Both the position numbers and the translations under genes were made by a program. Below are positions 10,468 through 34,557 of a DNA stretch of 64,000 nucleotides, piece by piece. This DNA is from Eubacteriales bacterium. GTDB lineage: Bacteria; Bacillota; Clostridia; Oscillospirales; Acutalibacteraceae. Numbering within the stretch: position 1 is the first letter of the stretch; every line of letters begins with the position of its first letter. The DNA is taken from NCBI GenBank assembly GCA_030533225.1, contig JAUNJO010000001.1, positions 34,402-98,401 of the forward strand, given 5' to 3'. The notes below the pieces were generated by a model. It did no database searches and had not been told where the DNA came from. It saw only the letters and a list, made by a program, of their open reading frames with translations.

Positions 10468-11757
10468 ATGAAAAAATCGTTAACTTTTTTTATCGCTGTT
10501 CTTATGACACTAAGCATAATTTCCGCGGGTAATTTCAGTGCCTCGGTTACTTCTGACGGCTTCACGGTGACACCCCTGAGTGAAATTACCGCCGAAATCA
10601 AGGGTTACACAGGCGAGGGCGGAAGTGTGGCTATCCCCGAAAAAATCGGTGACTACACAGTTGTTTCCGTTGGAGAAAATGCTTTTCTTAAGAATAAGAA
10701 CATCGAATCTCTCAGCATCCCCGAAAGTGTGACCTCCATTGGCAAAAGCGCCTTTGCAGGCTCGTATATCAAATCCGTTACAATGGAAAACGGGGTTGTT
10801 ACTCTTGGCGACAACGCTTTTCGCGAATGTGTCTACCTCGAGAGTATTTCTCTGTCAAAGAGCCTTGACAGTATTCCGCAGGGATGTTTTTACTCATGCA
10901 CAAGGCTCACTACTCTCACAATTCCCGACAGTGTAAAGTCTATCGGTGACAGCGCTCTGTACGGATGCTCTCATCTTGAGGAAATTGAAATTCCCTCCTC
11001 GGTGAAGGTAATCGGCTCATATGCATTGGCAAATAACCTTCAACTTAAAAATATCCAGCTCTGTGAAGGACTGGAAGAAATCAAAAGCTGTGCTTTCTTC
11101 CAAAATCCCATGCTTGACAGGGTGGAAATCCCCTCCACCGTCAAATCAATCGGGGAATACGCCTTCACCGAATGTACAAGCCTTGAATCCGTAACTCTAA
11201 ACGAAGGACTTGAAAGTTTGGGCGAGAGCGCCTTTGACACCTGTCCCGTTAAAGAGATTTATCTGCCGGAAACCCTGAAGAGTATCGGCGAATTTGCAGT
11301 AGGCTACTACTACGACCAGGATATGTTCGGTTTTTGTAAGTATGAGAACTTCAGGATAATCTGCAATGAAGGCACCTTAGGTCACGCCTACGCCACAGAT
11401 AACGGTTTCTACTTCGTATTCGCCGATAAAGAAACCACACTCCCCACCGAAGCGCCCACGGAAATTCCCACAATAGTTCCCACTACTGTCCCCACAACTT
11501 CACAGCCTCAAGAGACACTCCCCTCCGCCGAAACAGAGCCTTCTGAGACTACAGTCCCTTCGGAAAACTTACCTCTCGGAGATGTAAATCTTGACGGCAA
11601 ACTGAACATCAAGGACGCAACCGCCATTCAGAAGCATGTGGCAAATATTGAGGTGCTGGGCAACAAATCCCTCTCACTTGCAGATGTTAATCTTGACCTG
11701 AAGATAAATGTTAAAGACGCCACGGAAATTCAGAAGAGAATAGCGGGAATAATCTAA
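10468..11757 (+). CDS. Secreted BspA-type leucine-rich repeat protein with C-terminal dockerin
   Basis: Signal peptide, repeated IPxSVxSIGxxAF LRR_5 units, P/T linker, LGDVNLDGKLNIKDATAIQK duplicated EF-hand. Confidence 0.9.
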   Translation: MKKSLTFFIAVLMTLSIISAGNFSASVTSDGFTVTPLSEITAEIKGYTGEGGSVAIPEKIGDYTVVSVGENAFLKNKNIESLSIPESVTSIGKSAFAGSYIKSVTMENGVVTLGDNAFRECVYLESISLSKSLDSIPQGCFYSCTRLTTLTIPDSVKSIGDSALYGCSHLEEIEIPSSVKVIGSYALANNLQLKNIQLCEGLEEIKSCAFFQNPMLDRVEIPSTVKSIGEYAFTECTSLESVTLNEGLESLGESAFDTCPVKEIYLPETLKSIGEFAVGYYYDQDMFGFCKYENFRIICNEGTLGHAYATDNGFYFVFADKETTLPTEAPTEIPTIVPTTVPTTSQPQETLPSAETEPSETTVPSENLPLGDVNLDGKLNIKDATAIQKHVANIEVLGNKSLSLADVNLDLKINVKDATEIQKRIAGII

Positions 11758-11977: not shown

Positions 11978-12183
11978 AGTGATATTCTTTGCTGCGCTAA
12001 GAGTGATATGATTGCCGCCGGCAATCGTGGTATTAAAACCTATGGTTTTAGTGATATTTTATTCGCCTTTAAAAACTCGCAAAGCGAATAACACTCGGCA
12101 TTAGCCGAATATCACTGTGAAGCAATATCACTCGCCGAAAGGCGAATAAAACTGCCCAAGTGTCCTTAAGAACACTTGGGCAA
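11978..12183. repeat. REP-like palindromic repeat cluster (AGTGATATT / AATATCACT units)
   Basis: Forward units at 11978, 12002, 12050; reverse units at 12087, 12108, 12124; extra hairpins; lies between convergent genes. Confidence 0.6.
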
Positions 12184-12225: not shown

Positions 12226-14292
12226 TTATTCGTCGGCGTCAAGCTTTGCCTGCTCAATTACCTTCTGTGCAACATTGGAGGGAGCGTCCTCGTACCTTAC
12301 GAACTCAAAGGTGTAGGTTCCTCTGCCCTGTGTTGCCTGACGGATAAAGGTGTTGAAATCGTGCATCTCAGCCATGGGAACTTCTGCCTCAACAATCTGC
12401 ATGCCGTCTTCACCGGGGCTCATGCCGAGGATTCTGCCTCGGCGCTTGTTTACTTCGCCCATGATATCGCCCATGTGAGCGTCGGAAACAGCAGCCTTAA
12501 GTGTGCCGTAAGGCTCCAAAAGTGTGGGGGCGGCAATTGCCATACCGTTTTTGTAAGCAATCTTTGCAGCCATCTTAAATGCCATTTCGTTGGAATCAAC
12601 AGGATGGTAAGAGCCATCGTAAAGAGTAGCCTTGAGGCCTACAACGGGATAACCTGCAAGAGGTCCCTTGTTGATTGCTTCAAGCAAGCCTTTTTCAACT
12701 GCGGGGAAGAAGTTTTTGGGAACAGAACCGCCCACAACTCTCTCTGAGAATTCAAGTCCTTCTGCATCGCAGGGCTCAAACTCAATCCAAACATCACCGA
12801 ACTGACCGGCACCGCCCGACTGCTTCTTGTGTCTGCCCTGAACCTGTACCTTCTTGCGGATAGCCTCTCTGTATGCTACCTTGGGAATCTTAAGCTCAAC
12901 ATCAACATTGAATTTACTCTTAAGTTTGGAAACTACAACATCAAGCTGCTGGTCACCGAGACCGGTAACAACCATTTCCTTGGTTTCCTTGTCGGACTTA
13001 AAGATAAGTGTGGGATCTTCCTCAACAAGACGAACCATACCCTGAGCGACCTTATCCTCCTCACCCTTCTTCTTGGGGTAGATAGCCATCTTAAAGGTCG
13101 GGTTCTGGTAACGGATGCCTGCAAGGATAACCTTTCTCTTGGGTGAACAAAGGGTGTCGCCTGTGTTAGCGTCGGAAAGCTTCGGGATAGCGCCAATGTC
13201 ACCTGCGCCGATGTAGGCAGCCTCCTCCTGCTTCTTGCCCTTGACGATGAGCACCTTGGTAATTCTCTCCTGCTCTCCTGTTCTCATGTTAATCAGAGAG
13301 GTTTCGGGAGAAATCTTACCTGAAACAACCTTGAAGTATGAAAGCTTGCCGACGAAGGGGTCAGCAACGGTCTTGAAGATAATAGCAGAGGCAGGAGAGT
13401 CCTCGTCAACTGCCACGGAAACATCCTCGCCGTCCTCGTTCTGAGCGATTTCGCCTGCTTTCTTGAGGGCATTGGGAGCGATTTCGGCAATCAAATCCAG
13501 CATCTGCTCAACACCTGCCAGGGTGAGTGCGTCGGCACAGATAACAGGGAACAGTGCGCCGTCCTTAACAGCCAGACGGACACCGCGCAGGATCTCCTCC
13601 TCGGTGAATTCCTCACCGCCGAAGTACTTTTCAAGAAGCTCCTCGTCACTTTCTGCAACGGCTTCCTTCAAAGCGTCCATATAAACATCATAATAATCAA
13701 ACTCAGGGCAGGCAATCTCGGTTGCCTTGCCATTATTATAGGAATAAGCCTTACCTGTCAGGATATTTACATAAGCCTCAGCCTTACCGCCCTTAACAAC
13801 AGGCACAAAGATGGGGCAGACATTCTGACCGAAGGTGTCCTTAAGTCCGTCGAGAATACCGTAGAAATCCACACTCTCGTCACAAAGTCCGTTGACGATG
13901 AAAATTCTTGACAGAGATGAGCGTCTGGCGGCTCTGAATGCCTTTTCGGTACCCACTCCGCTGCCGTGCTTAGCGGAAACAACTACCAAGGCTGTGTCTG
14001 CGGCACGAATACCCTCGGCCTCACCGGATTTGAAGTCGAAAAGTCCGGGAGTGTCAAGAATATTTATCTTCTTATCTCTCCACTCGATAGGTGCAACGGC
14101 AATGGAAACGGAAGCCTTTCTCTTAATCTCCTCAGGGTCAAAGTCCATAACGGTGTTGCCATCGGTTACCTTGCCCAAGCGGTCGCTGCCGCCTGCTATG
14201 TAAATCATTGCCTCAGCCATAGAGGTCATACCTGCCGAACCTCTACCCACGAGAGCCACATTAACGATGTCTTGTGCTTTGTACTGTTTCAA
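12226..14292 (-). CDS. fusA2: Elongation factor G paralog (EF-G2-like) with degenerate GTPase motifs
   Basis: Full EF-G domain order (DTPG, HKKQSGGAGQFG, GSYHPVDS, PTLLEP); TTG start with RBS AAAGGAG; G1 GRGSAGMT, G4 NGLC. Confidence 0.9.
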   Translation of the reverse strand: MKQYKAQDIVNVALVGRGSAGMTSMAEAMIYIAGGSDRLGKVTDGNTVMDFDPEEIKRKASVSIAVAPIEWRDKKINILDTPGLFDFKSGEAEGIRAADTALVVVSAKHGSGVGTEKAFRAARRSSLSRIFIVNGLCDESVDFYGILDGLKDTFGQNVCPIFVPVVKGGKAEAYVNILTGKAYSYNNGKATEIACPEFDYYDVYMDALKEAVAESDEELLEKYFGGEEFTEEEILRGVRLAVKDGALFPVICADALTLAGVEQMLDLIAEIAPNALKKAGEIAQNEDGEDVSVAVDEDSPASAIIFKTVADPFVGKLSYFKVVSGKISPETSLINMRTGEQERITKVLIVKGKKQEEAAYIGAGDIGAIPKLSDANTGDTLCSPKRKVILAGIRYQNPTFKMAIYPKKKGEEDKVAQGMVRLVEEDPTLIFKSDKETKEMVVTGLGDQQLDVVVSKLKSKFNVDVELKIPKVAYREAIRKKVQVQGRHKKQSGGAGQFGDVWIEFEPCDAEGLEFSERVVGGSVPKNFFPAVEKGLLEAINKGPLAGYPVVGLKATLYDGSYHPVDSNEMAFKMAAKIAYKNGMAIAAPTLLEPYGTLKAAVSDAHMGDIMGEVNKRRGRILGMSPGEDGMQIVEAEVPMAEMHDFNTFIRQATQGRGTYTFEFVRYEDAPSNVAQKVIEQAKLDADE

Positions 14293-14719
14293 AATGTTTA
14301 TCTCCTTTCGAGCTCCGTAACGAGCAAGTCGATTGTTAAAAGTTACTAATATTGTAACCACTTTTTAATTATATCAAAGCAATTTTTATAACACAACAAA
14401 AAAGTGTCCGAGAACCGAAAAATCAACTTCTTAGCCAATATAACAGGCCGACATTTGTGCAATTTGTATAGTAGTTTTTCTCATTTTTCTTATTATTTAA
14501 CCTAACATAACAAGTTTTATTCCTGTGTAGAATTATTATATGCAAAGAAACATCCTCACAGACCTAAACTGCGTTAAGTTGTTGTGTCGTAAGTTTTATT
14601 TGCAAGTAAAATACACAAATAGACGGCTGTACATTTGTACCTATTGCTAATAGTTTTATTTTTCTGAAATGTGATATAATTTTGAATGTAGAATTCAAAT
14701 TCATTTTGGAGGTGCAATA

Positions 14720-17700
14720 ATGAAATCATTTTTAAGAAAATCACTTGCTGTCCTTCTTGCAGTCCTGAGTGTTTTGGGACTTTTCGGAGGAATATCCACA
14801 GTCTTCGCCGCTGAAGGCTACAAAGCAGGGGATGTAATCTATGTTGACTACTCCGCCATTCCCCAGTGGTACACAGGAGTGGCTGACACAGGCTTCGGTA
14901 AGGTTACATCCGTACTCTATATCAACTTCTCGGCAAGCACCCGCTATGACTCGGGGGAAAAGGAAACCGTCACTATCGGCGATGTCACAGCTCGCTTTGA
15001 CCCCAAAACGGTTACCGAAAAGGTCGATGACTGCGTATATAAATATGTTGTGACCGAGGCAGACGCAGGCAAAACAACTCTCCGCTTCTGGAGAGGAAGC
15101 GAAACTAACCTTTGGAATCACTCCGTAGAGCTTACCTATGAGGATTTCTCCAAAGGCTACAACACCGTTTACGTTAACGACTACAACAACGGCGCCGAGG
15201 CTGTGGGCTCTGTGGGCACAAGCGAATACCTGCCCTATGATATTGAAGCAGAGCTTTCAATACTCCCTGTAGAAGAACAGGAGAACACCTACACCGTAAA
15301 TGTGTCCTGCAAAACCGAATTGCCCGTTGAGGCTCGGTATGAATACGAAATCTTCATAAACGAAGAGACCGTAGGCAAGACTCAAACCCACACCTTTACA
15401 GCCACAAACGTATATAACGCCATCAAAGCTACCGTCACCGCCACCGATACAGACGGCAATCTACTTGCAAAATGTGAAGTTACCGGTCAAATAATAATCG
15501 GCGGCACTGTTGTAAACAATGTTCAGGAAAATAACCTCTACGCTCACGCCGTTGTTGACGGCGGTCAGGACAATGACGCTTGGACCTATGCGGAAAAAGT
15601 GAGTGGCAAGTACTACTTCTTCCTGCCCTCTTCTGCAAGCGCCTCTCAGGTTGAGCTTTACAGCACCTACTCCTCACCTATAACAATCGGGGACACCGTA
15701 ATTAATCCCGGCGAGGTCAAAACCATTAACTACACAGCAGATACCAACTACTCCGTTACCGGCGGCGCAAATTATACCCTCTCCTTTAAGCGTTCCGGTG
15801 CTGAAGCCGCTGTATATGTGAACAACGACGGCACGGTTGACGGTTCACTTTGGAGCTTCTTAACCGCTGACAAAGAGAACTACACCTCCTGCTTTGCGGC
15901 AATCGCAAACGCTGACGGAACTCTTGACAATACCGATGTGAAAAAGATTAAGGGACGCGGCAACACCACATGGATGGCAGACAAAAAGCCCTTTAACCTC
16001 AACTTCAAATCCGCTGTTACAGTGGGCACGATGCAAACCACCAAGAAGTATTCCCTCCTTGCTAACTTCCAAGATGCCGCTATGGCTCGCAACCGCGTAC
16101 TTTACGACTTGGGAGATGCAGTCTCATTGCGTTACTCCTGCGACTCAAGATTTGTTGACTTCTATGTGGACGGCAGGTACATGGGTCAGTATCAAATGTG
16201 TCAGAAAATCGAACCCGGTGCAGACAACTTAGTAAACGAAATGGAAGATGACTGCCATATTGACTCAAACGGCAACTATGTAGAGGAATATCCTCTTCTC
16301 TTAGAGATTCCCTATGGGGAGGACTTCTGGACCTCTACGAACTCAGGCTTCGATGTTGTCATAAAGTCTCCCGATGTTGAGGGCAACGACAACCTCTATG
16401 CAAACGAAGTCAAGCAGTATGTTAAAACCCGATTTGATGCAATGGTAAACGCCATTAAGCAGGACAGTGAAAATCTCTCGGATTATATCAATATCGAGTC
16501 CTTTGCCAAGGCATATCTCATTCAGGAGCTGGGCAAGAACTGGGACACACACTCCTGGTATCTCGTATATGTTCCCGACGAGAACGGTGTTTACAAATTC
16601 GAAGCCTCTCCCGTTTGGGATTTTGACAACTCCATCGGCAATGCAAACGGTGTGGGAACTGACCTAAAAAAATTCGGTGTTGACGACTACACTCTGCCTA
16701 CAGGCTGGTGGGGCAAATACAAGACAGGTTCAAATAACATGACCTACCTCTGCACTCAGAACTCTCAGATTATGGAAGCCGCAAAGACCGTATGGTTTAA
16801 GAATTTTGTTCCTGCTCTTGATGTTTACGCATCAAACGGAAACACCCAAAAGGAAATTCTCTCGGCAGATGTTTACTACAATTCTCTCAAAGACTCCGCC
16901 GAGATGAACTATATGAAGTGGAGCCTTCTCACCAACTCAGGTTGGGTTGCAGACCACGGCAAATTAACCAAGGCAACCTTTGACTGTGAAACCCTCACCT
17001 ACACGGTTGACAGTACCCCGACAACCTACAATCAGTACACCTTCAAAGGTCAGTTTGACTACATGACCGACTGGCTCATGTCAAGAGCCGCTTGGATTTC
17101 CAACGAGTGGAAAGACTACTATGTTCCCGGCGAAGAAGTACCCGATGCACCTGTGACGGAAACAAAACCCGAACAGGTACCCTCGGCCGAGGTAACTCTC
17201 CCCGAAAACACCTTAACCGCTTTCGTATTCGACTCCTGGGGCAAAACCGAGGAGGAAAAACTCACAGAATACGGCGACAAGTCAGGTTATAATGCTACCT
17301 TCGGAGAAGGTGTTTTGAGAGCCAGTGTAAATTCCGACGGCTACCGCGCACTTGAGTGGTCAATAATGGAATACGGCGAAAGCGGACTTGAAATCGTACC
17401 CCTTATGACCGCAGGAAGCAAAAACCCCTGGGGCGACAATCCCTATGTTGAGGTTCAGCTTTCAACCAAGGGGTTTGAAGATATTGCAATCTCCCTCACC
17501 TCCGCAGGCTCTAAGAAATGTCCTGCAAGCTGGCAGCTTGCCTACAGCTATGACGGTGTAAACTTTACCGACATTGACGGCGCTGCCTACACTATCTCGG
17601 CTGAAAACAGAAAACTCCCCATAGTTTACTTTGACGGTACACCTCTGCCCCATGCAGTAGCCGACAAGGACACAGTTATCCTCAGACTGTACGCCAAATC

Positions 17701-18100
17701 CAACATAACCGTAGGCGGCGGTACAACCGCGGATGACCCCACAGGCGGTGAGTTATTAATCAACAACATTATTATCACAGGCTCTCCCGTGAGCAGCACA
17801 GTACCCTCCACCTCCGCCACAGAACCCACCGAGACAACCTCTCCTGCGACAACTACACAACCCTCCGACCCCTTAGATGAGCTTATCTTAGGTGATGTGG
17901 ACTTAAGCGGTAAGGTGAATGTCAAGGACGCAACCCTAATCCAAAAGCACATTGCAAACCTGGAAACATTCAACGAAATGCAGCTTAAATGTTCAGATGC
18001 AAACTGCGACGAGGCAGTTAACATCAAGGACGCAACCGAAATCCAGAAGTTCGTTGCAAATCTTCTGAGTGACAGTCCCATCGGAAAGATTATCCCATAA
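14720..18100 (+). CDS. Secreted CotH-kinase-family protein with C-terminal dockerin
   Basis: Signal peptide; IKGRGNTTW, KKPFNL, PVWDFDNS CotH motifs; LGDVDLSGKVNVKDATLIQK dockerin. Confidence 0.85.
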   Translation: MKSFLRKSLAVLLAVLSVLGLFGGISTVFAAEGYKAGDVIYVDYSAIPQWYTGVADTGFGKVTSVLYINFSASTRYDSGEKETVTIGDVTARFDPKTVTEKVDDCVYKYVVTEADAGKTTLRFWRGSETNLWNHSVELTYEDFSKGYNTVYVNDYNNGAEAVGSVGTSEYLPYDIEAELSILPVEEQENTYTVNVSCKTELPVEARYEYEIFINEETVGKTQTHTFTATNVYNAIKATVTATDTDGNLLAKCEVTGQIIIGGTVVNNVQENNLYAHAVVDGGQDNDAWTYAEKVSGKYYFFLPSSASASQVELYSTYSSPITIGDTVINPGEVKTINYTADTNYSVTGGANYTLSFKRSGAEAAVYVNNDGTVDGSLWSFLTADKENYTSCFAAIANADGTLDNTDVKKIKGRGNTTWMADKKPFNLNFKSAVTVGTMQTTKKYSLLANFQDAAMARNRVLYDLGDAVSLRYSCDSRFVDFYVDGRYMGQYQMCQKIEPGADNLVNEMEDDCHIDSNGNYVEEYPLLLEIPYGEDFWTSTNSGFDVVIKSPDVEGNDNLYANEVKQYVKTRFDAMVNAIKQDSENLSDYINIESFAKAYLIQELGKNWDTHSWYLVYVPDENGVYKFEASPVWDFDNSIGNANGVGTDLKKFGVDDYTLPTGWWGKYKTGSNNMTYLCTQNSQIMEAAKTVWFKNFVPALDVYASNGNTQKEILSADVYYNSLKDSAEMNYMKWSLLTNSGWVADHGKLTKATFDCETLTYTVDSTPTTYNQYTFKGQFDYMTDWLMSRAAWISNEWKDYYVPGEEVPDAPVTETKPEQVPSAEVTLPENTLTAFVFDSWGKTEEEKLTEYGDKSGYNATFGEGVLRASVNSDGYRALEWSIMEYGESGLEIVPLMTAGSKNPWGDNPYVEVQLSTKGFEDIAISLTSAGSKKCPASWQLAYSYDGVNFTDIDGAAYTISAENRKLPIVYFDGTPLPHAVADKDTVILRLYAKSNITVGGGTTADDPTGGELLINNIIITGSPVSSTVPSTSATEPTETTSPATTTQPSDPLDELILGDVDLSGKVNVKDATLIQKHIANLETFNEMQLKCSDANCDEAVNIKDATEIQKFVANLLSDSPIGKIIP

Positions 18101-18173: not shown

Positions 18174-20543
18174 TTACAGATTTACGGAAAACTCCTTGCC
18201 GATTTCAAAGGGGATGGGCATATTGGCGACGAACTTTTGAATATTTGTTGCGTCTATAACATTCACCCTGCTGTCAAGGTTAACATCAGCCGCTAACAAG
18301 CCCAATTCGTCTAAATTCTCCAGCTTTGCCGAATACTTTTGGATGAGAGTCGCATCCTTGATATTGATTCTTCCGTCAAGGTCTGCGTCACCAAGCTTGT
18401 AGGTTAATGCAGGAGTTACCGTTGTCACAGCAGTAGTTGTGACTGCAGTCTCCGTTGTGCTCTCGGAAGTAGATGCGGTCGGCTCCGATTCATCCGGGGT
18501 AGCGGTAGTGGAAACCTCAGTTGTAACGGGTACTGAAGTGGGGTCAACATCAGAGTACACATAACTCTCAACATTCCATTTTCCGTCCGCCGTCTTATCG
18601 GTAACGTAGTAACCCAGGCCATCCGAGATTCCCCCGTCTATGTTCACGGTTTGGTTGCGGCCGGTACCCCCAAACACAAAGCCCTCAACATCAGCGGGGA
18701 TTTGGGCGGTGTAAATATCATATCCGTAGGAATTTGTCCTGACATAAGTCATAGGCACACCGGGCCAATAGACAGTATCCTGCTCACTTCCCCAATAGTA
18801 CACATTCACCTCGTCCCAGTTTTGGTTGTTGGTAAAGTACACATTGATCATTTCGGTCTGCTTCTCGGTTGTGGGAACAACAGTTGTAGCCGGTGCTGAT
18901 GTTGTCACTTCCTCAGGTATAGTAGTTTCTGCAGGATCTGTGGCAACGGTAGTTTGAGGCACAGTGGTCTCTACCGGGTCAGTGGAAACAGTGGTCTCGG
19001 GTACGGTGGTCTCGGATACGGTGGTCACAGGTGAGGTTGTAAGCTCTGTAACAGGCGCTGTAGTCTCAGCAGGAGTTGTAGGTTCGGAAGAAAGGTTTTC
19101 GGTTATCGCCTTAATTACAAAAGTACCGCCCATATCGTCGTTCAAATATTTGGAATAAAGGTCCTTTACGTCCTGAATATCCGATGACATCATTAGGTAA
19201 CTCATGTCTCTCTCTGCCTGTGACACGAAAATATAATCACTTCCGTTATTCAGCCACTCGCAGACGCCTATGGAATTATATGAGGCGGTATTTTGAGTAT
19301 TAATACGAATACCGATAGCACCCTTGCCTGCGGGCACCTCAACATTATCAAAATCCTCACATATGTAACCGGTGTAGGTAACAGTTCCCCGGCAGAGAGT
19401 TTGCCACAAATCGGTATCCGAGGTGGGCTGAGTATTTGCGTATGGGATATAATACACGGTATAGTCGGCGCCAAAAGCCGTGGTTTCAAAGATTACCTTA
19501 TCGAGAGTTCTATCCTCCTCGGAGAAGTCAAAGGCATTCATGTAAACAATATCCTTGTAGTTTCCCAGGTAGTTGAATTCATAAGTAGCTCCGTAAATTT
19601 CGTTTTGATAAATAGCCATTTCATCGGTTACTTTATCGAATCCGGTTATGGCATAGCTGGGCCCGAAAATTTTATCATAGAGCCAAACATCCTCGTAGGA
19701 AATATAGAAGTAACCTCCGTCGCCTGTATATGTGCCCCAGCTGTTTTTAATTATCCAAGCGCCGTTTTCTTTGGGAGTACCGGAAATACTTCCTGAAAAG
19801 TTCTCCTTCGGATAGTTATCGTCCCAACCCACAACGCTTACAGCGTGACCCATAAGATTTCCTAAACTAATGGTTGAGTCGGCACAGTAGTAGTCTCTGT
19901 TATTGCTCAGATATTGTCTATCCGAGTTAAAATTGGCAACTGCGGAACCGTACTTATAAATAAGGAGCTTTATACTGTCTCTGTCGGCATCATCGTTAAA
20001 GAATGTTACCGAGGTCGGTGCGTACTGAGGGGTAGCCGAAAATCTGTCAAAATCGCTCTCTGTGCTTTCCTCCGGGAAAGCTTCAATGCTAAACGGACCC
20101 TGACGGCTCATAAGATAGCCGAGGGGAATGTATGAATATCCGGCTGAGTCCGCCTCTCTCTGCCAGCCTGTGCCGTCCTCGTTTACGGTTCCCCAGATGT
20201 TCATGTGCTGAACAGAATAGACATCCGTTTCGATGTTGTTTTTAAGGAGCAAAGTCTCAAAACTCGCAAGAGAACCGAAAGCCCAACAGGTGTTGGATTG
20301 CTGAGTTCTGACAGGAGTGGTGAAGCCAGCCTCCTTTGAGCTGTACCGTGACGGCAAATCAACACCCACAGGCAAGATTTCAACATTTTCGGGAATATTG
20401 CTGCTCACGGGGAGCACTCCGCCTGTCATATTCGCACCGAGTGTGACGGGTGTGTCCTCCACCTCCACCGCAGATACCGAAACAGCTGTTATAATCAACA
20501 ACAAAGAAAGCAAAATTGCGGTGAATTTTCTGTAGACCTTCAT
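18174..20543 (-). CDS. Papain-like (C1A) cysteine peptidase + P/T linker + CBM26-like starch-binding module + dockerin
   Basis: QSNTCWAF, GHAVSVVGWDD, IKNSWG catalytic triad; VYFTNNQNWDEVNVYYW module; dockerin; ATG 20543 with RBS. Confidence 0.85.
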   Translation of the reverse strand: MKVYRKFTAILLSLLLIITAVSVSAVEVEDTPVTLGANMTGGVLPVSSNIPENVEILPVGVDLPSRYSSKEAGFTTPVRTQQSNTCWAFGSLASFETLLLKNNIETDVYSVQHMNIWGTVNEDGTGWQREADSAGYSYIPLGYLMSRQGPFSIEAFPEESTESDFDRFSATPQYAPTSVTFFNDDADRDSIKLLIYKYGSAVANFNSDRQYLSNNRDYYCADSTISLGNLMGHAVSVVGWDDNYPKENFSGSISGTPKENGAWIIKNSWGTYTGDGGYFYISYEDVWLYDKIFGPSYAITGFDKVTDEMAIYQNEIYGATYEFNYLGNYKDIVYMNAFDFSEEDRTLDKVIFETTAFGADYTVYYIPYANTQPTSDTDLWQTLCRGTVTYTGYICEDFDNVEVPAGKGAIGIRINTQNTASYNSIGVCEWLNNGSDYIFVSQAERDMSYLMMSSDIQDVKDLYSKYLNDDMGGTFVIKAITENLSSEPTTPAETTAPVTELTTSPVTTVSETTVPETTVSTDPVETTVPQTTVATDPAETTIPEEVTTSAPATTVVPTTEKQTEMINVYFTNNQNWDEVNVYYWGSEQDTVYWPGVPMTYVRTNSYGYDIYTAQIPADVEGFVFGGTGRNQTVNIDGGISDGLGYYVTDKTADGKWNVESYVYSDVDPTSVPVTTEVSTTATPDESEPTASTSESTTETAVTTTAVTTVTPALTYKLGDADLDGRINIKDATLIQKYSAKLENLDELGLLAADVNLDSRVNVIDATNIQKFVANMPIPFEIGKEFSVNL

Positions 20544-20878
20544 TGGATACTCCTCCCGATACATATGTATTTTCATTAATATATTAACACAGGCGACAAG
20601 CCCTGTAAAGTGTTGATTTCTTATACACGGACTTTTGGCATCGGTTTTGATGAAAGTCACGAAAAAAAACAGTATTCGGTTTATCCTTATGTTGCTGTTT
20701 CTTGTTCTGTCTGCAATCAGCGGATTACTGATTGATTTTTATATATTCCGTTCCTTCACAGTAGATTGATATAATACTTCTTCATTTGTAGTCCCTCCAT
20801 TCGATTACAGTATATCCATAATCGTTGCCAGCTTCAAATATACAAAAACAGAACCCCGAACTAAACAGTCCGAGGTTC

Positions 20879-21323: not shown

Positions 21324-22556
21324 TCAAAAGATGTCCAACCTTGATAAGTTGTTAAATGATTCCTGCTTCTTTTGATCCGTTGCTTCCGCATAGATATCCA
21401 TGGTTGTTTCAATGTTGCGATGGCCCATAATATCCTGGATCACTTTCAAATTTGTTTCGTGCTCACAGAGCCTGGTACAAAAAGTGTGCCTTAGATGATG
21501 GCAGGAGAAATCCGGAAGAATTACCGGTTCGCGTCTTTCGCGCTTAGCTTTTACAACCTCATCCGAGTTATGGCTGCAGATAATGCGTTTGATGGTTCGG
21601 TTAACAGACTGCGGTGTTTGCAACGAGCCATAACGGTTGATAAATATAAATCCCTTCATACCGTCAAGCTCTGGATCACAAGTTCCGTTCTCGTCTTGTT
21701 CTTCTTGTACCATTTGAAATGCATCATACACAACATCAAGCATCGGAATTGTGCGAATGCCTGCTTCGGTTTTCGGTTTTGAAATTTGCAGAGTAGACTT
21801 TCTGGAGTTCCCTATCGGATAGTATACAACGCTATGATTGATACTGATCTTTCGATTGTCAAAATCAAGGTCGTTCCACGTCAGCCCCAAAACCTCTCCA
21901 ATTCGGCCGCCGGTACCCAACAATACTGCAAACAGCGGCCACCAATGATAGTACACCGGATGGTTTGCAATATAGTCCATAAAGGATCGTTGCTCCGCCA
22001 AAGTGAGTGCATGGCGCATTCCTCTTGCTTTGTCGGATTCCTTGCTAACTTCCTTCATCACACCGTCTGACGGATTCTTTCTGATAATCTCATCACGAAC
22101 TGCCAGTTGGAATGTGGGGTGCAGCAAGGTGTGTACCGAATCTAACGTTCCCAACGATAAATCATCCACGTTGAGCAGATGCAGATAAAATTGAAGAACA
22201 TCAGAATACTTAACCTCAGCGATTTTCTTTCTGCCAAATGTGTCTCTGATGAAGCGATCATAGATGTAAAGATAGTTGCTTCGGGTCGTTTCTCTCAACT
22301 TGCATTTCGTTGACATATACCGATCGAACGTATCGTTGACAGTAGCTTTACCGGCAACATAGATATCCAGGCCATCCAATTGATCCTTCATCAATTGCTT
22401 TTCTTTTTCTCTAAGCGTGGTCAGATCATTCGCATATATAAACTTCCGCCTTCCCAAAGGGTCGGTATACGTATACATATATCGTTTGTCTGACGCCCTT
22501 TGTACCTCTCCTTTTCTCAGTGCTCTACCGCGCTCGTCTTTTCGTGCCTTTGCCAT
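21324..22556 (-). CDS. int: Tyrosine integrase, Tn916-like
   Basis: N-terminal arm-binding domain (GEVQRASDKRYMYTY), catalytic R (GRIGE), K, HHLRH, GH, Y; ATG 22556 with RBS. Confidence 0.96.
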   Translation of the reverse strand: MAKARKDERGRALRKGEVQRASDKRYMYTYTDPLGRRKFIYANDLTTLREKEKQLMKDQLDGLDIYVAGKATVNDTFDRYMSTKCKLRETTRSNYLYIYDRFIRDTFGRKKIAEVKYSDVLQFYLHLLNVDDLSLGTLDSVHTLLHPTFQLAVRDEIIRKNPSDGVMKEVSKESDKARGMRHALTLAEQRSFMDYIANHPVYYHWWPLFAVLLGTGGRIGEVLGLTWNDLDFDNRKISINHSVVYYPIGNSRKSTLQISKPKTEAGIRTIPMLDVVYDAFQMVQEEQDENGTCDPELDGMKGFIFINRYGSLQTPQSVNRTIKRIICSHNSDEVVKAKRERREPVILPDFSCHHLRHTFCTRLCEHETNLKVIQDIMGHRNIETTMDIYAEATDQKKQESFNNLSRLDIF

Positions 22557-22600
22557 ACTGATTACCTCCTTCAATAATATTGAAAAAGGGATCACAGCAC

Positions 22601-23088: not shown

Positions 23089-23467
23089 TATCCAGCTCCT
23101 CCTTCTATTCAAATTTTTAGTAGTTATGCTTTTGCACTCCGCCTGTAGCGAACAGGTCCATAGGAATTTCACCTTCCCGCCTTCATTGTGGCCGGACCGC
23201 GAATTACGGAAGTCTCATTATCCCCGGATAGATCATCGCGTTATGCAGGTGCCACCCGCATATCAGTGCTCATGGAACTGTTTGCCGGACAGTTGGATAG
23301 CCGCTTCTTATTCCGGGACCGTGGAGGCAAAAACTATTCAGTTTTCAAGGTCCACTAAAAGTCATAAGGATGCTTTCATAGAGAAACACGTAAGGAAATT
23401 TGGAAATATGGCAAATCACGAAAAAATTTTCAAGAATAATGCTCCGGACGAATCCGGAGCATTATTC

Positions 23468-34326: not shown

Positions 34327-34557
34327 TTATTTCTTTTTTATCGTTTGAGGAATTATCGCAAGTACCGCACCTACTACGAAAGAAACAATTACTTTAACAA
34401 AGGCATTATGTCTTATACTTTCAATAAAATATTCCATAGGTTCAGCAGCAAGTTTGATTCTAAATTGGGGCAAAAAACACATTAGCAAATATGCCGCTAT
34501 AAACCCTAAACAAAACAAAATGATTGATAACCATATCTTCTTATTCATACAAACCAA
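34327..34557 (-). CDS. Small two-TM hypothetical protein
   Basis: Two hydrophobic segments; AT-rich patch. Confidence 0.55.
   Translation of the reverse strand: MVCMNKKIWLSIILFCLGFIAAYLLMCFLPQFRIKLAAEPMEYFIESIRHNAFVKVIVSFVVGAVLAIIPQTIKKK

Follow-up and report, generated by a model that had tools for sequence, protein, structure and literature searches.

What can an elongation factor G (EF-G) still do on the ribosome once the residues that bind and hydrolyse guanosine triphosphate (GTP) have been replaced? This question is raised by a gene in a 64,000-nucleotide stretch of the genome of a Eubacteriales bacterium (GenBank assembly GCA_030533225.1, contig JAUNJO010000001.1, forward-strand positions 34,402 to 98,401). 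We refer to the whole stretch as the window and, unless stated otherwise, give positions counted from its first letter. The gene encodes a second EF-G, which a preliminary description had singled out from the letters alone as a paralog with degenerate GTP-binding motifs. Judged by its sequence, the product is probably a functional ribosome factor that does not hydrolyse GTP and probably does not bind it either. The coding sequence, the motifs of the G domain and domain IV are located as follows:

12226–14292, minus strand: coding sequence of the paralog, an EF-G of the EFG II type (688 aa; start codon TTG; stop codon TAA at 12226–12228)
14224–14247, minus strand: G1 P-loop, G16-R-G-S-A-G-M22-T23 (GRGSAGMT versus canonical AHIDAGKT)
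14107–14121, minus strand: G2/switch I, RKASV (canonical RGITI; Thr to Ser; EFG II Clostridia pattern RxxSI)
14041–14055, minus strand: G3/switch II, DTPGL (canonical DTPGH; catalytic His to Leu84)
13879–13893, minus strand: G4, NGLC and then D (NGLCD; canonical NKMD, that is NKxD; Lys to Gly, Asp to Cys)
13528–13539, minus strand: G5, CADA (canonical CG(S/T)A, in S. aureus CGTA; Gly to Ala, Ser to Asp254)
12523–12885, minus strand: domain IV with the tip loops QSGGAGQFG and GSYHPVDS (loops near-identical to canonical EF-G; strongest constraint in the protein, with a ratio of non-synonymous to synonymous substitution rates, dN/dS, of 0.033)

A selected gene with altered G motifs

The motif states were read from a residue-by-residue HMMER alignment to S. 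aureus EF-G (2xex/3zz0), which confirmed every motif that the preliminary description had listed as degenerate. In the P-loop, the Walker A Lys is replaced by Met22 (codon ATG at 14227–14229) and Arg17 stands in place of His. Across the motifs, the Walker A Lys, the catalytic His, the Lys and Asp of G4 and the Gly and Ser of G5 are all gone, the sequence proxy for a pseudo-GTPase. That the gene is a paralog is borne out by the canonical fusA of the same genome (C50:15769-17835), which stands next to tuf in the row rpsL-rpsG-fusA-tuf and scores 1190 bits on TIGR00484, the canonical EF-G equivalog model. Besides the window paralog, the genome has no further EFG II copy.

The same set of motifs recurs in other genomes. 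Among 5.8 billion protein clusters searched, 19 further ones, from NCBI, ENA and Logan assemblies, are 79–100% identical to the paralog. GRGS[AS]GMTS, DTPGL, NGLCD and C[AV]DA are present in all 19 full-length sequences (a set that includes the query; one 659-aa match was set aside) and in the genomes of six GTDB species. Met occupies the P-loop Lys position in these six species (that of the window, another with 93% identity to it and four with 79–80%), which we call the K-to-M clade. When the 222 species of the GTDB genus to which the host belongs were searched, 199 proved to carry the paralog; for high-quality genomes the count was 112 of 118. Ruminococcus bromii ATCC 27255 is among the same-genus genomes in our tree, in agreement with the Ruminococcus-like host that had been proposed. 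Public databases label the K-to-M paralogs and their relatives plainly ‘elongation factor G’, which masks the motif differences.

The gene is under purifying selection. Pairwise comparisons of the six K-to-M species give dS values of 0.3–1.3 and dN/dS values of 0.04–0.13. Averaged over the clade, dN/dS comes to 0.098 for the whole gene, with the G core at 0.085, domain IV at 0.033 and domain V at 0.049. In the sister clade, where the Lys is retained, the whole gene gives 0.074 and its G core 0.050. Codons of the P-loop, G3, G4 and G5 differ synonymously between species while the residues are unchanged, and in the P-loop it is the Gly and Ser codons that vary. Moreover, the K-to-M clade shows no variation at 21 of its 24 G-motif positions, against a G-core baseline of 68% (binomial p ~0.03, hand calculation). 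The motif changes are genuine, and the gene is neither an error nor a pseudogene. The preliminary description had named orthologue conservation and dN/dS as checks. K-to-M is kept throughout the six species and the 19 full-length clusters, with no sign of strain-specific decay or assembly error, and dN/dS is ~0.1. Its argument that several independent changes speak against an error was right about the error but not about the independence: three of the four changes are inherited, the His loss being near-universal in EFG II-like sequences and the G4 and G5 changes common to a large clade at the level of the Acutalibacteraceae.

The fold appears to be retained as well. GTP_EFTU, EF-G_D2, EFG_III, EFG_IV and EFG_C each score above threshold in Pfam, which supports the earlier statement that domains II–V are intact. 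The two tip loops of domain IV are the decoding-centre loops. AlphaFold2, run on a 30-sequence alignment, predicted the protein with a mean predicted local distance difference test (pLDDT) score of 84.5 and a predicted template modelling (pTM) score of 0.80, the only parts of low confidence being switch I, the switch II tip and the tip loops of domain IV. The best Foldseek matches of this model are ribosome-bound EF-Gs with template modelling (TM) scores of 0.82–0.87; the values for 1WDT, 8DMF and 9K0Z are 0.75, 0.82 and 0.84. According to the model, the paralog thus keeps an intact five-domain EF-G fold in a shape like that of the ribosome-bound factor.

Signals for expression flank the coding sequence:

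14301–14309, minus strand: Shine-Dalgarno sequence GAAAGGAGA, 8 nt 5′ of the TTG, read from the sequence
14348–14377, minus strand: sigma-70-like promoter match TTGATA-18-AATATT (9/12, a consensus match alone)
12152–12183, minus strand: intrinsic terminator-like hairpin (14 bp stem and T-run), 43 nt past the stop codon

The TTG at 14292 was taken as the start because GAAAGGAGA is properly spaced upstream and the resulting N-terminus, MKQYK, is that of all homologues; the longest form of the same frame begins with GTG at 14361. Since the flanking genes sit on the opposite strand, the paralog gene is monocistronic. No Rfam match to a 5′ leader or riboswitch was found upstream of it. Its self-consistent codon adaptation index of 0.612 ranks 102nd among 1582 open reading frames, close to rpsL. 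This index puts EF-Tu, ribosomal proteins, GAPDH, PGK and DnaK on top, and, although codon adaptation is a weak proxy for expression, the paralog is probably well expressed. The K-to-M clade and many other species of the genus use TTG or GTG as the start codon, whereas ATG is found in 14 of 17 Lys-bearing sequences of the nearest sister clades. This contrast may reflect a different translational control of the paralog.

Family placement and the order of motif losses

By its sequence signatures, the window protein belongs to the known EFG II subfamily and therein to the Clostridia subgroup. It does not reach the cut-off of TIGR00484 (574.8 versus 659.4), all five motifs deviating, and it lies between dockerin-protein genes and not in the str operon. 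Nor does it reach the cut-offs of NF058620, the model of Bacteroides EF-G2 (554.7 versus 1000, aligned in two stretches with a break at position 508), or of NF012153, which describes tetracycline ribosomal protection proteins (275.5 versus 775). NF009381, the best NCBIfam model, is not specific and was rejected as a family marker: P0001 passes it (835.8 versus 583), but the canonical EF-G of the same genome reaches 855 and there are matches in 10 control genomes too.

An HMMER scan of 1.84 billion representative proteins was used to examine the nearest 150 clusters. One of them is a canonical EF-G, two others carry the switch-II His and the rest are without it. In most of these relatives without His, the P-loop begins with Gly or Ser, a Gly occupies the position of the cation-binding Asp and G2 contains a Ser. 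EFG II was described with a P-loop that starts with Gly and a G2 relaxed to xxxSx, in Clostridia RxxSI (Margus, Remm & Tenson 2011, PMC3150367), and the signatures of the relatives also fit the ‘EFGII’ of Atkinson 2015 (PMC4342817). The EFG II family and its missing catalytic His are thus already known. This also settles the earlier suggestion that the protein might be a convergent analogue of Bacteroides EF-G2, which does not hold: both belong to the same long-known subfamily (PMC3150367, PMC4342817).

Several signs of EFG II are found in the window protein. Gly16 opens the P-loop in place of Ala, a canonical copy coexists in the genome and G2 reads RKASV (RKASI in its clade). The hydrophobic Leu that EFG II has at the last P-loop position (Leu25 of 1WDT) is Met25 here, Leu in the sister species of the clade and Leu, Val or Ile in relatives. 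With the Clostridia sub-subgroup, the protein shares its standing as a second EF-G outside the str operon, all five domains, the absence of the catalytic His, the Gly at the start of the P-loop, the Gly at the monovalent-cation Asp position and a G2 of the form RxxS(I/V). What sets it apart is that Lys is replaced in G1, Lys and Asp in G4, and Gly and Ser in G5. Published EFG II sequences conserve G1 as GhxxxGKT, G4 as NKxD and G5 as gSAx (PMC3150367), forms from which GRGSAGMT, NGLCD and CADA depart. Because the tree nests the clade among GKT-bearing EFG II sequences, these departures are derived within EFG II and do not exclude the protein from it.

In a tree of 157 sequences, the canonical EF-Gs are monophyletic (support 100) with the query outside; the monophyly of the remainder is weak (12). 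The EF-G2 proteins of T. thermophilus, B. thetaiotaomicron and M. smegmatis were compared outside the trees, by profile scores on the PDB and by signature positions. The family profile gives 676 bits for canonical EF-G, 573 for T. thermophilus EF-G2, 571 for B. thetaiotaomicron EF-G2 and 538 for M. smegmatis EF-G2. The higher score on canonical EF-G fits the remark by Margus that the Clostridia group is the least diverged of EFG II (PMC3150367).

The order of the losses was derived from named genome loci, motif tables and a 48-sequence maximum-likelihood tree with support from the Shimodaira–Hasegawa-like approximate likelihood ratio test (SH-aLRT). The most distant tier of relatives (at most 60% identity) comprises Merdimmobilis hominis, Acetanaerobacterium elongatum, Solibaculum and Avimonas. 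Here the motifs are GHxxxGKT, DTPGL, a G4 that is mostly [NST]KxD (NEMD in the Avimonas group, SRLD in Solibaculum) and a G5 that is mostly CGS[AS]; the His is gone and the other motifs are largely canonical. The combination of NG[LVM]CD and CGDA has a single origin (support 99) in a clade at the level of the Acutalibacteraceae, which contains Faecalispora, Caccousia, Limousia, relatives of Anaeromassilibacillus and the R. bromii genus in its entirety, with R. bromii ATCC 27255 among its members. The orthologue of this strain (63% identity) and those of other Acutalibacteraceae share DTPGL and the monocistronic arrangement with the window gene and carry NGLCD and CGDA. Whereas their P-loop is an intact GHSGxGKT, the window clade has GRGSxGMT and has lost the G5 Gly. 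This Gly is also missing in the sister clade of the window's group (C[VI]EA).

K22M in turn has a single origin (clade support 100), nested within the NGxC clade inside the R. bromii genus. Eight substitutions are fixed in, and unique to, the K-to-M clade: H17R, S18G, K22M, L30I, S399T, S443T, P603S and N606H. The first four of these lie in the P-loop or in helix α1. Accelerated evolution on the stem of the clade was considered and rejected, since its length of 0.17 does not exceed those of the sister stems (0.21 and 0.32). Outside the clade, the Walker A Lys is lost in 1 of 146 EFG II-like representatives, P0178. This 696-aa sequence reads GHSGSGTTT with NKMD and CGSA intact, and may be an independent case of Lys loss or a sequencing error in a singleton cluster. 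The loss of this Lys is almost unique among the relatives sampled.

Read from the sequences, the losses are layered: that of the His is ancient, those in G4 and G5 are intermediate and that of the P-loop (K22M, H17R, S18G) is recent. Of these layers, the recent one alone is new. With its NGxCD/GDA pocket, the Acutalibacteraceae group itself departs from the published description of EFG II. In the literature searched, we found no EF-G-family protein with a loss of the Walker A Lys that is conserved and under selection, and no pseudo-GTPase of a translation-factor family that is without this Lys.

What the factor may do on the ribosome

The G domain changed in three steps. The catalytic switch-II His was already gone in the EFG II ancestor. 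An Acutalibacteraceae-level ancestor then lost the guanine-reading Lys and Asp of G4 and changed the G5 Ser to Asp, and the six-species clade finally lost the Walker A Lys (K22M) along with H17R and S18G. The outcome would be a pseudo-GTPase G domain in which GTP hydrolysis is gone and GTP binding of useful affinity is most likely gone as well. Such a factor would still bind at the factor site of the ribosome, with its constrained domain IV reaching the decoding centre, and could drive a slow translocation that needs no nucleotide, much as Bacteroides EF-G2 translocates without hydrolysis. The motif states and their order in the tree, the purifying selection, the predicted fold and the codon adaptation are shown by the analysis; that nucleotide binding is lost, that the factor binds ribosomes and that it acts as a slow translocase, a brake or a recycling factor is inferred. 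It might leave the ribosome without hydrolysis because the tight GTP state is never formed. We favour this slow, nucleotide-independent translocase tentatively, stopping a little short of calling it probable.

What EF-G gains from hydrolysing GTP has been debated for long; translocation is reported to be driven by the binding energy of EF-G and not by hydrolysis, which pays for release (PMC12775393). Papers that cite Han 2023 describe B. thetaiotaomicron EF-G2 as translocating slowly without GTPase activity, and its gene is induced under carbon limitation (PMC6989115). This protein (fusA2, BT2167; PDB 7UVP/8DMF; Townsend 2020, PMC6989115) shares much with the window paralog: it is of the EFG II type, comes from a gut anaerobe with an essential EF-G1 alongside, is encoded monocistronically and is without the GTPase residues, and 8DMF matches our model at a Foldseek TM score of 0.82. 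It differs by ~30 extra residues after position 508 and in G2, which is YGYSV where the window protein has RKASV. We presume that it keeps the P-loop Lys.

The lost residues bear differently on this proposal. The Walker A Lys contacts the β and γ phosphates, and its replacement by Met is the textbook nucleotide-dead change. The catalytic His is another matter. T. thermophilus EF-G2 is reported to hydrolyse GTP (10.64898/2026.05.25.727771). If this factor is also without the His, as we assume, the loss of the His alone is no proof of a dead GTPase. In M. smegmatis EF-G1, the substitution H88Y nearly abolishes GTPase activity. A comparison may also be drawn with the Class I pseudo-GTPases such as AAGAB (PMC12490416), in which a GTPase fold is likewise under selection while the consensus residues of G1, G3, G4 and G5 are lost; for the window protein, the nucleotide-free state is a prediction from these residues.

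Several points weigh against a nucleotide-independent translocase. The paralog is without ~30 residues of Bacteroides EF-G2 (688 aa versus 718 aa, with the alignment break at residue 508). Han et al. reportedly found that release depends on a stretch of 26 residues that only EF-G2 has; we infer that this region corresponds to the ~30-residue segment that the paralog is missing. EF-G in its apo form binds ribosomes weakly. Moreover, M. smegmatis EF-G2, another member of EFG II, is reported as a brake and not as a translocase. Finally, the other ligands of the nucleotide and of Mg, Thr23 (P-loop), Ser61 (G2), Asp80 (G3), Asn134 (G4) and Asp254 (G5), are kept and invariant, the P-loop has gained an Arg and the pocket is conserved above the average G-core site. 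A pocket that still binds something may show the same pattern of conservation.

The first alternative to be weighed is that the paralog acts as a brake on translation, holding the factor site of (post-translocation) ribosomes under stress in competition with EF-G1 and without any catalysis. M. smegmatis EF-G2 (PDB 9K0Z/9K10, among the structure matches of our model) provides the precedent, being reported to trap post-translocated ribosomes in a stress-specific role and to have no ribosome-dependent GTPase activity. Like the window protein, it belongs to EFG II and has substitutions in the P-loop and at switch residues. A factor unable to reach the GTP state would also be a poor motor, and a high codon adaptation suits stoichiometric action. 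However, the domain IV loops of M. smegmatis EF-G2 are reported to be displaced from the tRNA, whereas the tip loops of the window protein are near-canonical and belong to its most constrained domain. Furthermore, a trap requires tight binding, which is expected to be weaker without a nucleotide. We regard the brake as an unlikely, if serious, explanation.

A second alternative holds that the pocket has been rebuilt and still binds a nucleotide. In this case, Arg17 would replace the charge of Lys22, as in WNK kinases, and Asp254 of G5 would read the base, leaving a nucleoside triphosphate switch with a possibly altered base specificity. H17R and K22M were fixed on one branch, and the invariance of Thr23, Ser61, Asp80, Asn134 and Asp254 after the change, at a conservation above the G-core average, would be accounted for. 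The loss of the G4 Asp together with an acidic G5 is moreover recurrent. Asp or Glu occupies the G5 Ser position in 6 of 19 clusters without the G4 Asp but in only 5 of 127 with it (Fisher p = 0.0007 across 146 EFG II-like representative clusters, uncorrected for phylogeny), which suggests that the base-reading carboxylate has repeatedly been relocated from G4 to G5. The combined loss and gain comes from several EFG II lineages that are not related to one another; P0196, P0228, P0231, P0245 and P0264 (among P0122–P0271) are examples.

On the other hand, the second position of the P-loop is reported to contact the sarcin-ricin loop in canonical EF-G and so would face ribosomal RNA (rRNA) and not the phosphates. 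Arg17 may supply the lost charge to the phosphates, or it may instead strengthen rRNA binding. A Lys-to-Met change in Walker A is generally known to kill nucleotide binding, and, P0178 apart, the 146 representative relatives outside the clade have kept the Lys. Taken together, we consider a rebuilt nucleotide pocket rather improbable.

A ribosomal protection protein of the Tet(M)/Tet(O) kind, conferring antibiotic resistance, would come from the same superfamily and could explain the weak matches to tet_protect models. This is very improbable, given the low NF012153 score, Tet(M), Tet(Q) and Tet(W) models far under their cut-offs, the EF-G-like loops of domain IV, and a vertically inherited gene that is near-universal in the genus and lies outside the nearby Tn916-type element. 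Least of all can we credit a pseudogene in decay, or an error of assembly or sequencing in a single metagenome-assembled genome: although 4 of the 5 G motifs are off the canonical EF-G consensus and the source is a 95-contig assembly, the same motif set stands in open frames in six species and 19 full-length independent protein clusters, dN/dS is ~0.1 at dS ~1 with synonymous variation within the motifs, and a ribosome-binding site, a terminator and high codon adaptation are present.

If the slow, nucleotide-independent translocase that we favour is correct and the factor supports elongation, it would be an in vivo demonstration that the binding energy of a factor alone both drives and resets translocation. 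The loss of the tight GTP state would then be an alternative solution to the problem of release, which Bacteroides EF-G2 solves with its extra 26-residue segment. A hydrolysis-free translocase exists in Bacteroides EF-G2 and matters for gut colonisation. That the K-to-M clade encodes the first natural EF-G-family translocase to work without any nucleotide is, on the motifs described here, a doubtful proposition. Whatever its activity, one gene family offers a natural series, from an intact pocket without the His through a rebuilt base pocket, the intermediate stage represented by cultured relatives such as R. bromii, to a pocket without the Walker A Lys. These three grades bear on whether nucleotide binding is dispensable for a factor of the EF-G type, and on translation under energy limitation in starch-degrading keystone Firmicutes of the gut.

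Neighbourhood of the paralog

The genes around the paralog encode a leucine-rich repeat (LRR) dockerin protein, an AI-2E transporter, a GH25 protein and a CotH-dockerin protein. They are functionally unrelated to it, and no operon partner was found in its genomic context. The synteny of these neighbours is limited to the K-to-M clade and its sister clade. The following features were recorded nearby:

10468–11757, plus strand: secreted dockerin protein with BspA-type LRR
14720–18100, plus strand: secreted dockerin protein of 1126 aa with a CotH domain
18174–20660, minus strand: secreted dockerin peptidase of the papain family with a CBM26 starch-binding module
12083–12154, minus strand: Gut-1 RNA (RF01706), 50.8 bits versus a gathering score of 50, full-length model, directly past the paralog terminator
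12128–12149: second terminator-like hairpin, overlapping the Gut-1 RNA match
21324–22595, minus strand: Tn916-type tyrosine integrase (Phage_integrase and Integrase_DNA), adjoining the pemK RNA
23158–23221, minus strand: pemK RNA cis-regulatory motif (RF02913), 70.7 bits

The three dockerin proteins that flank the paralog are consistent with amylosome-like components, as befits the R. bromii lineage. A link between the Gut-1 RNA and the paralog was rejected: the RNA occurs in 1 of 14 related loci (L071:6367-6441), where it lies on the opposite strand relative to the paralog. The integrase and the adjoining pemK RNA suggest an integrated mobile element with a toxin-antitoxin module ~7 kb from the paralog. 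Elsewhere in the window, the segment 36001–38000 has a GC content of 0.355, against 0.42–0.49 in the remainder, and its AT skew is reversed; this segment might consist of foreign or intergenic DNA.

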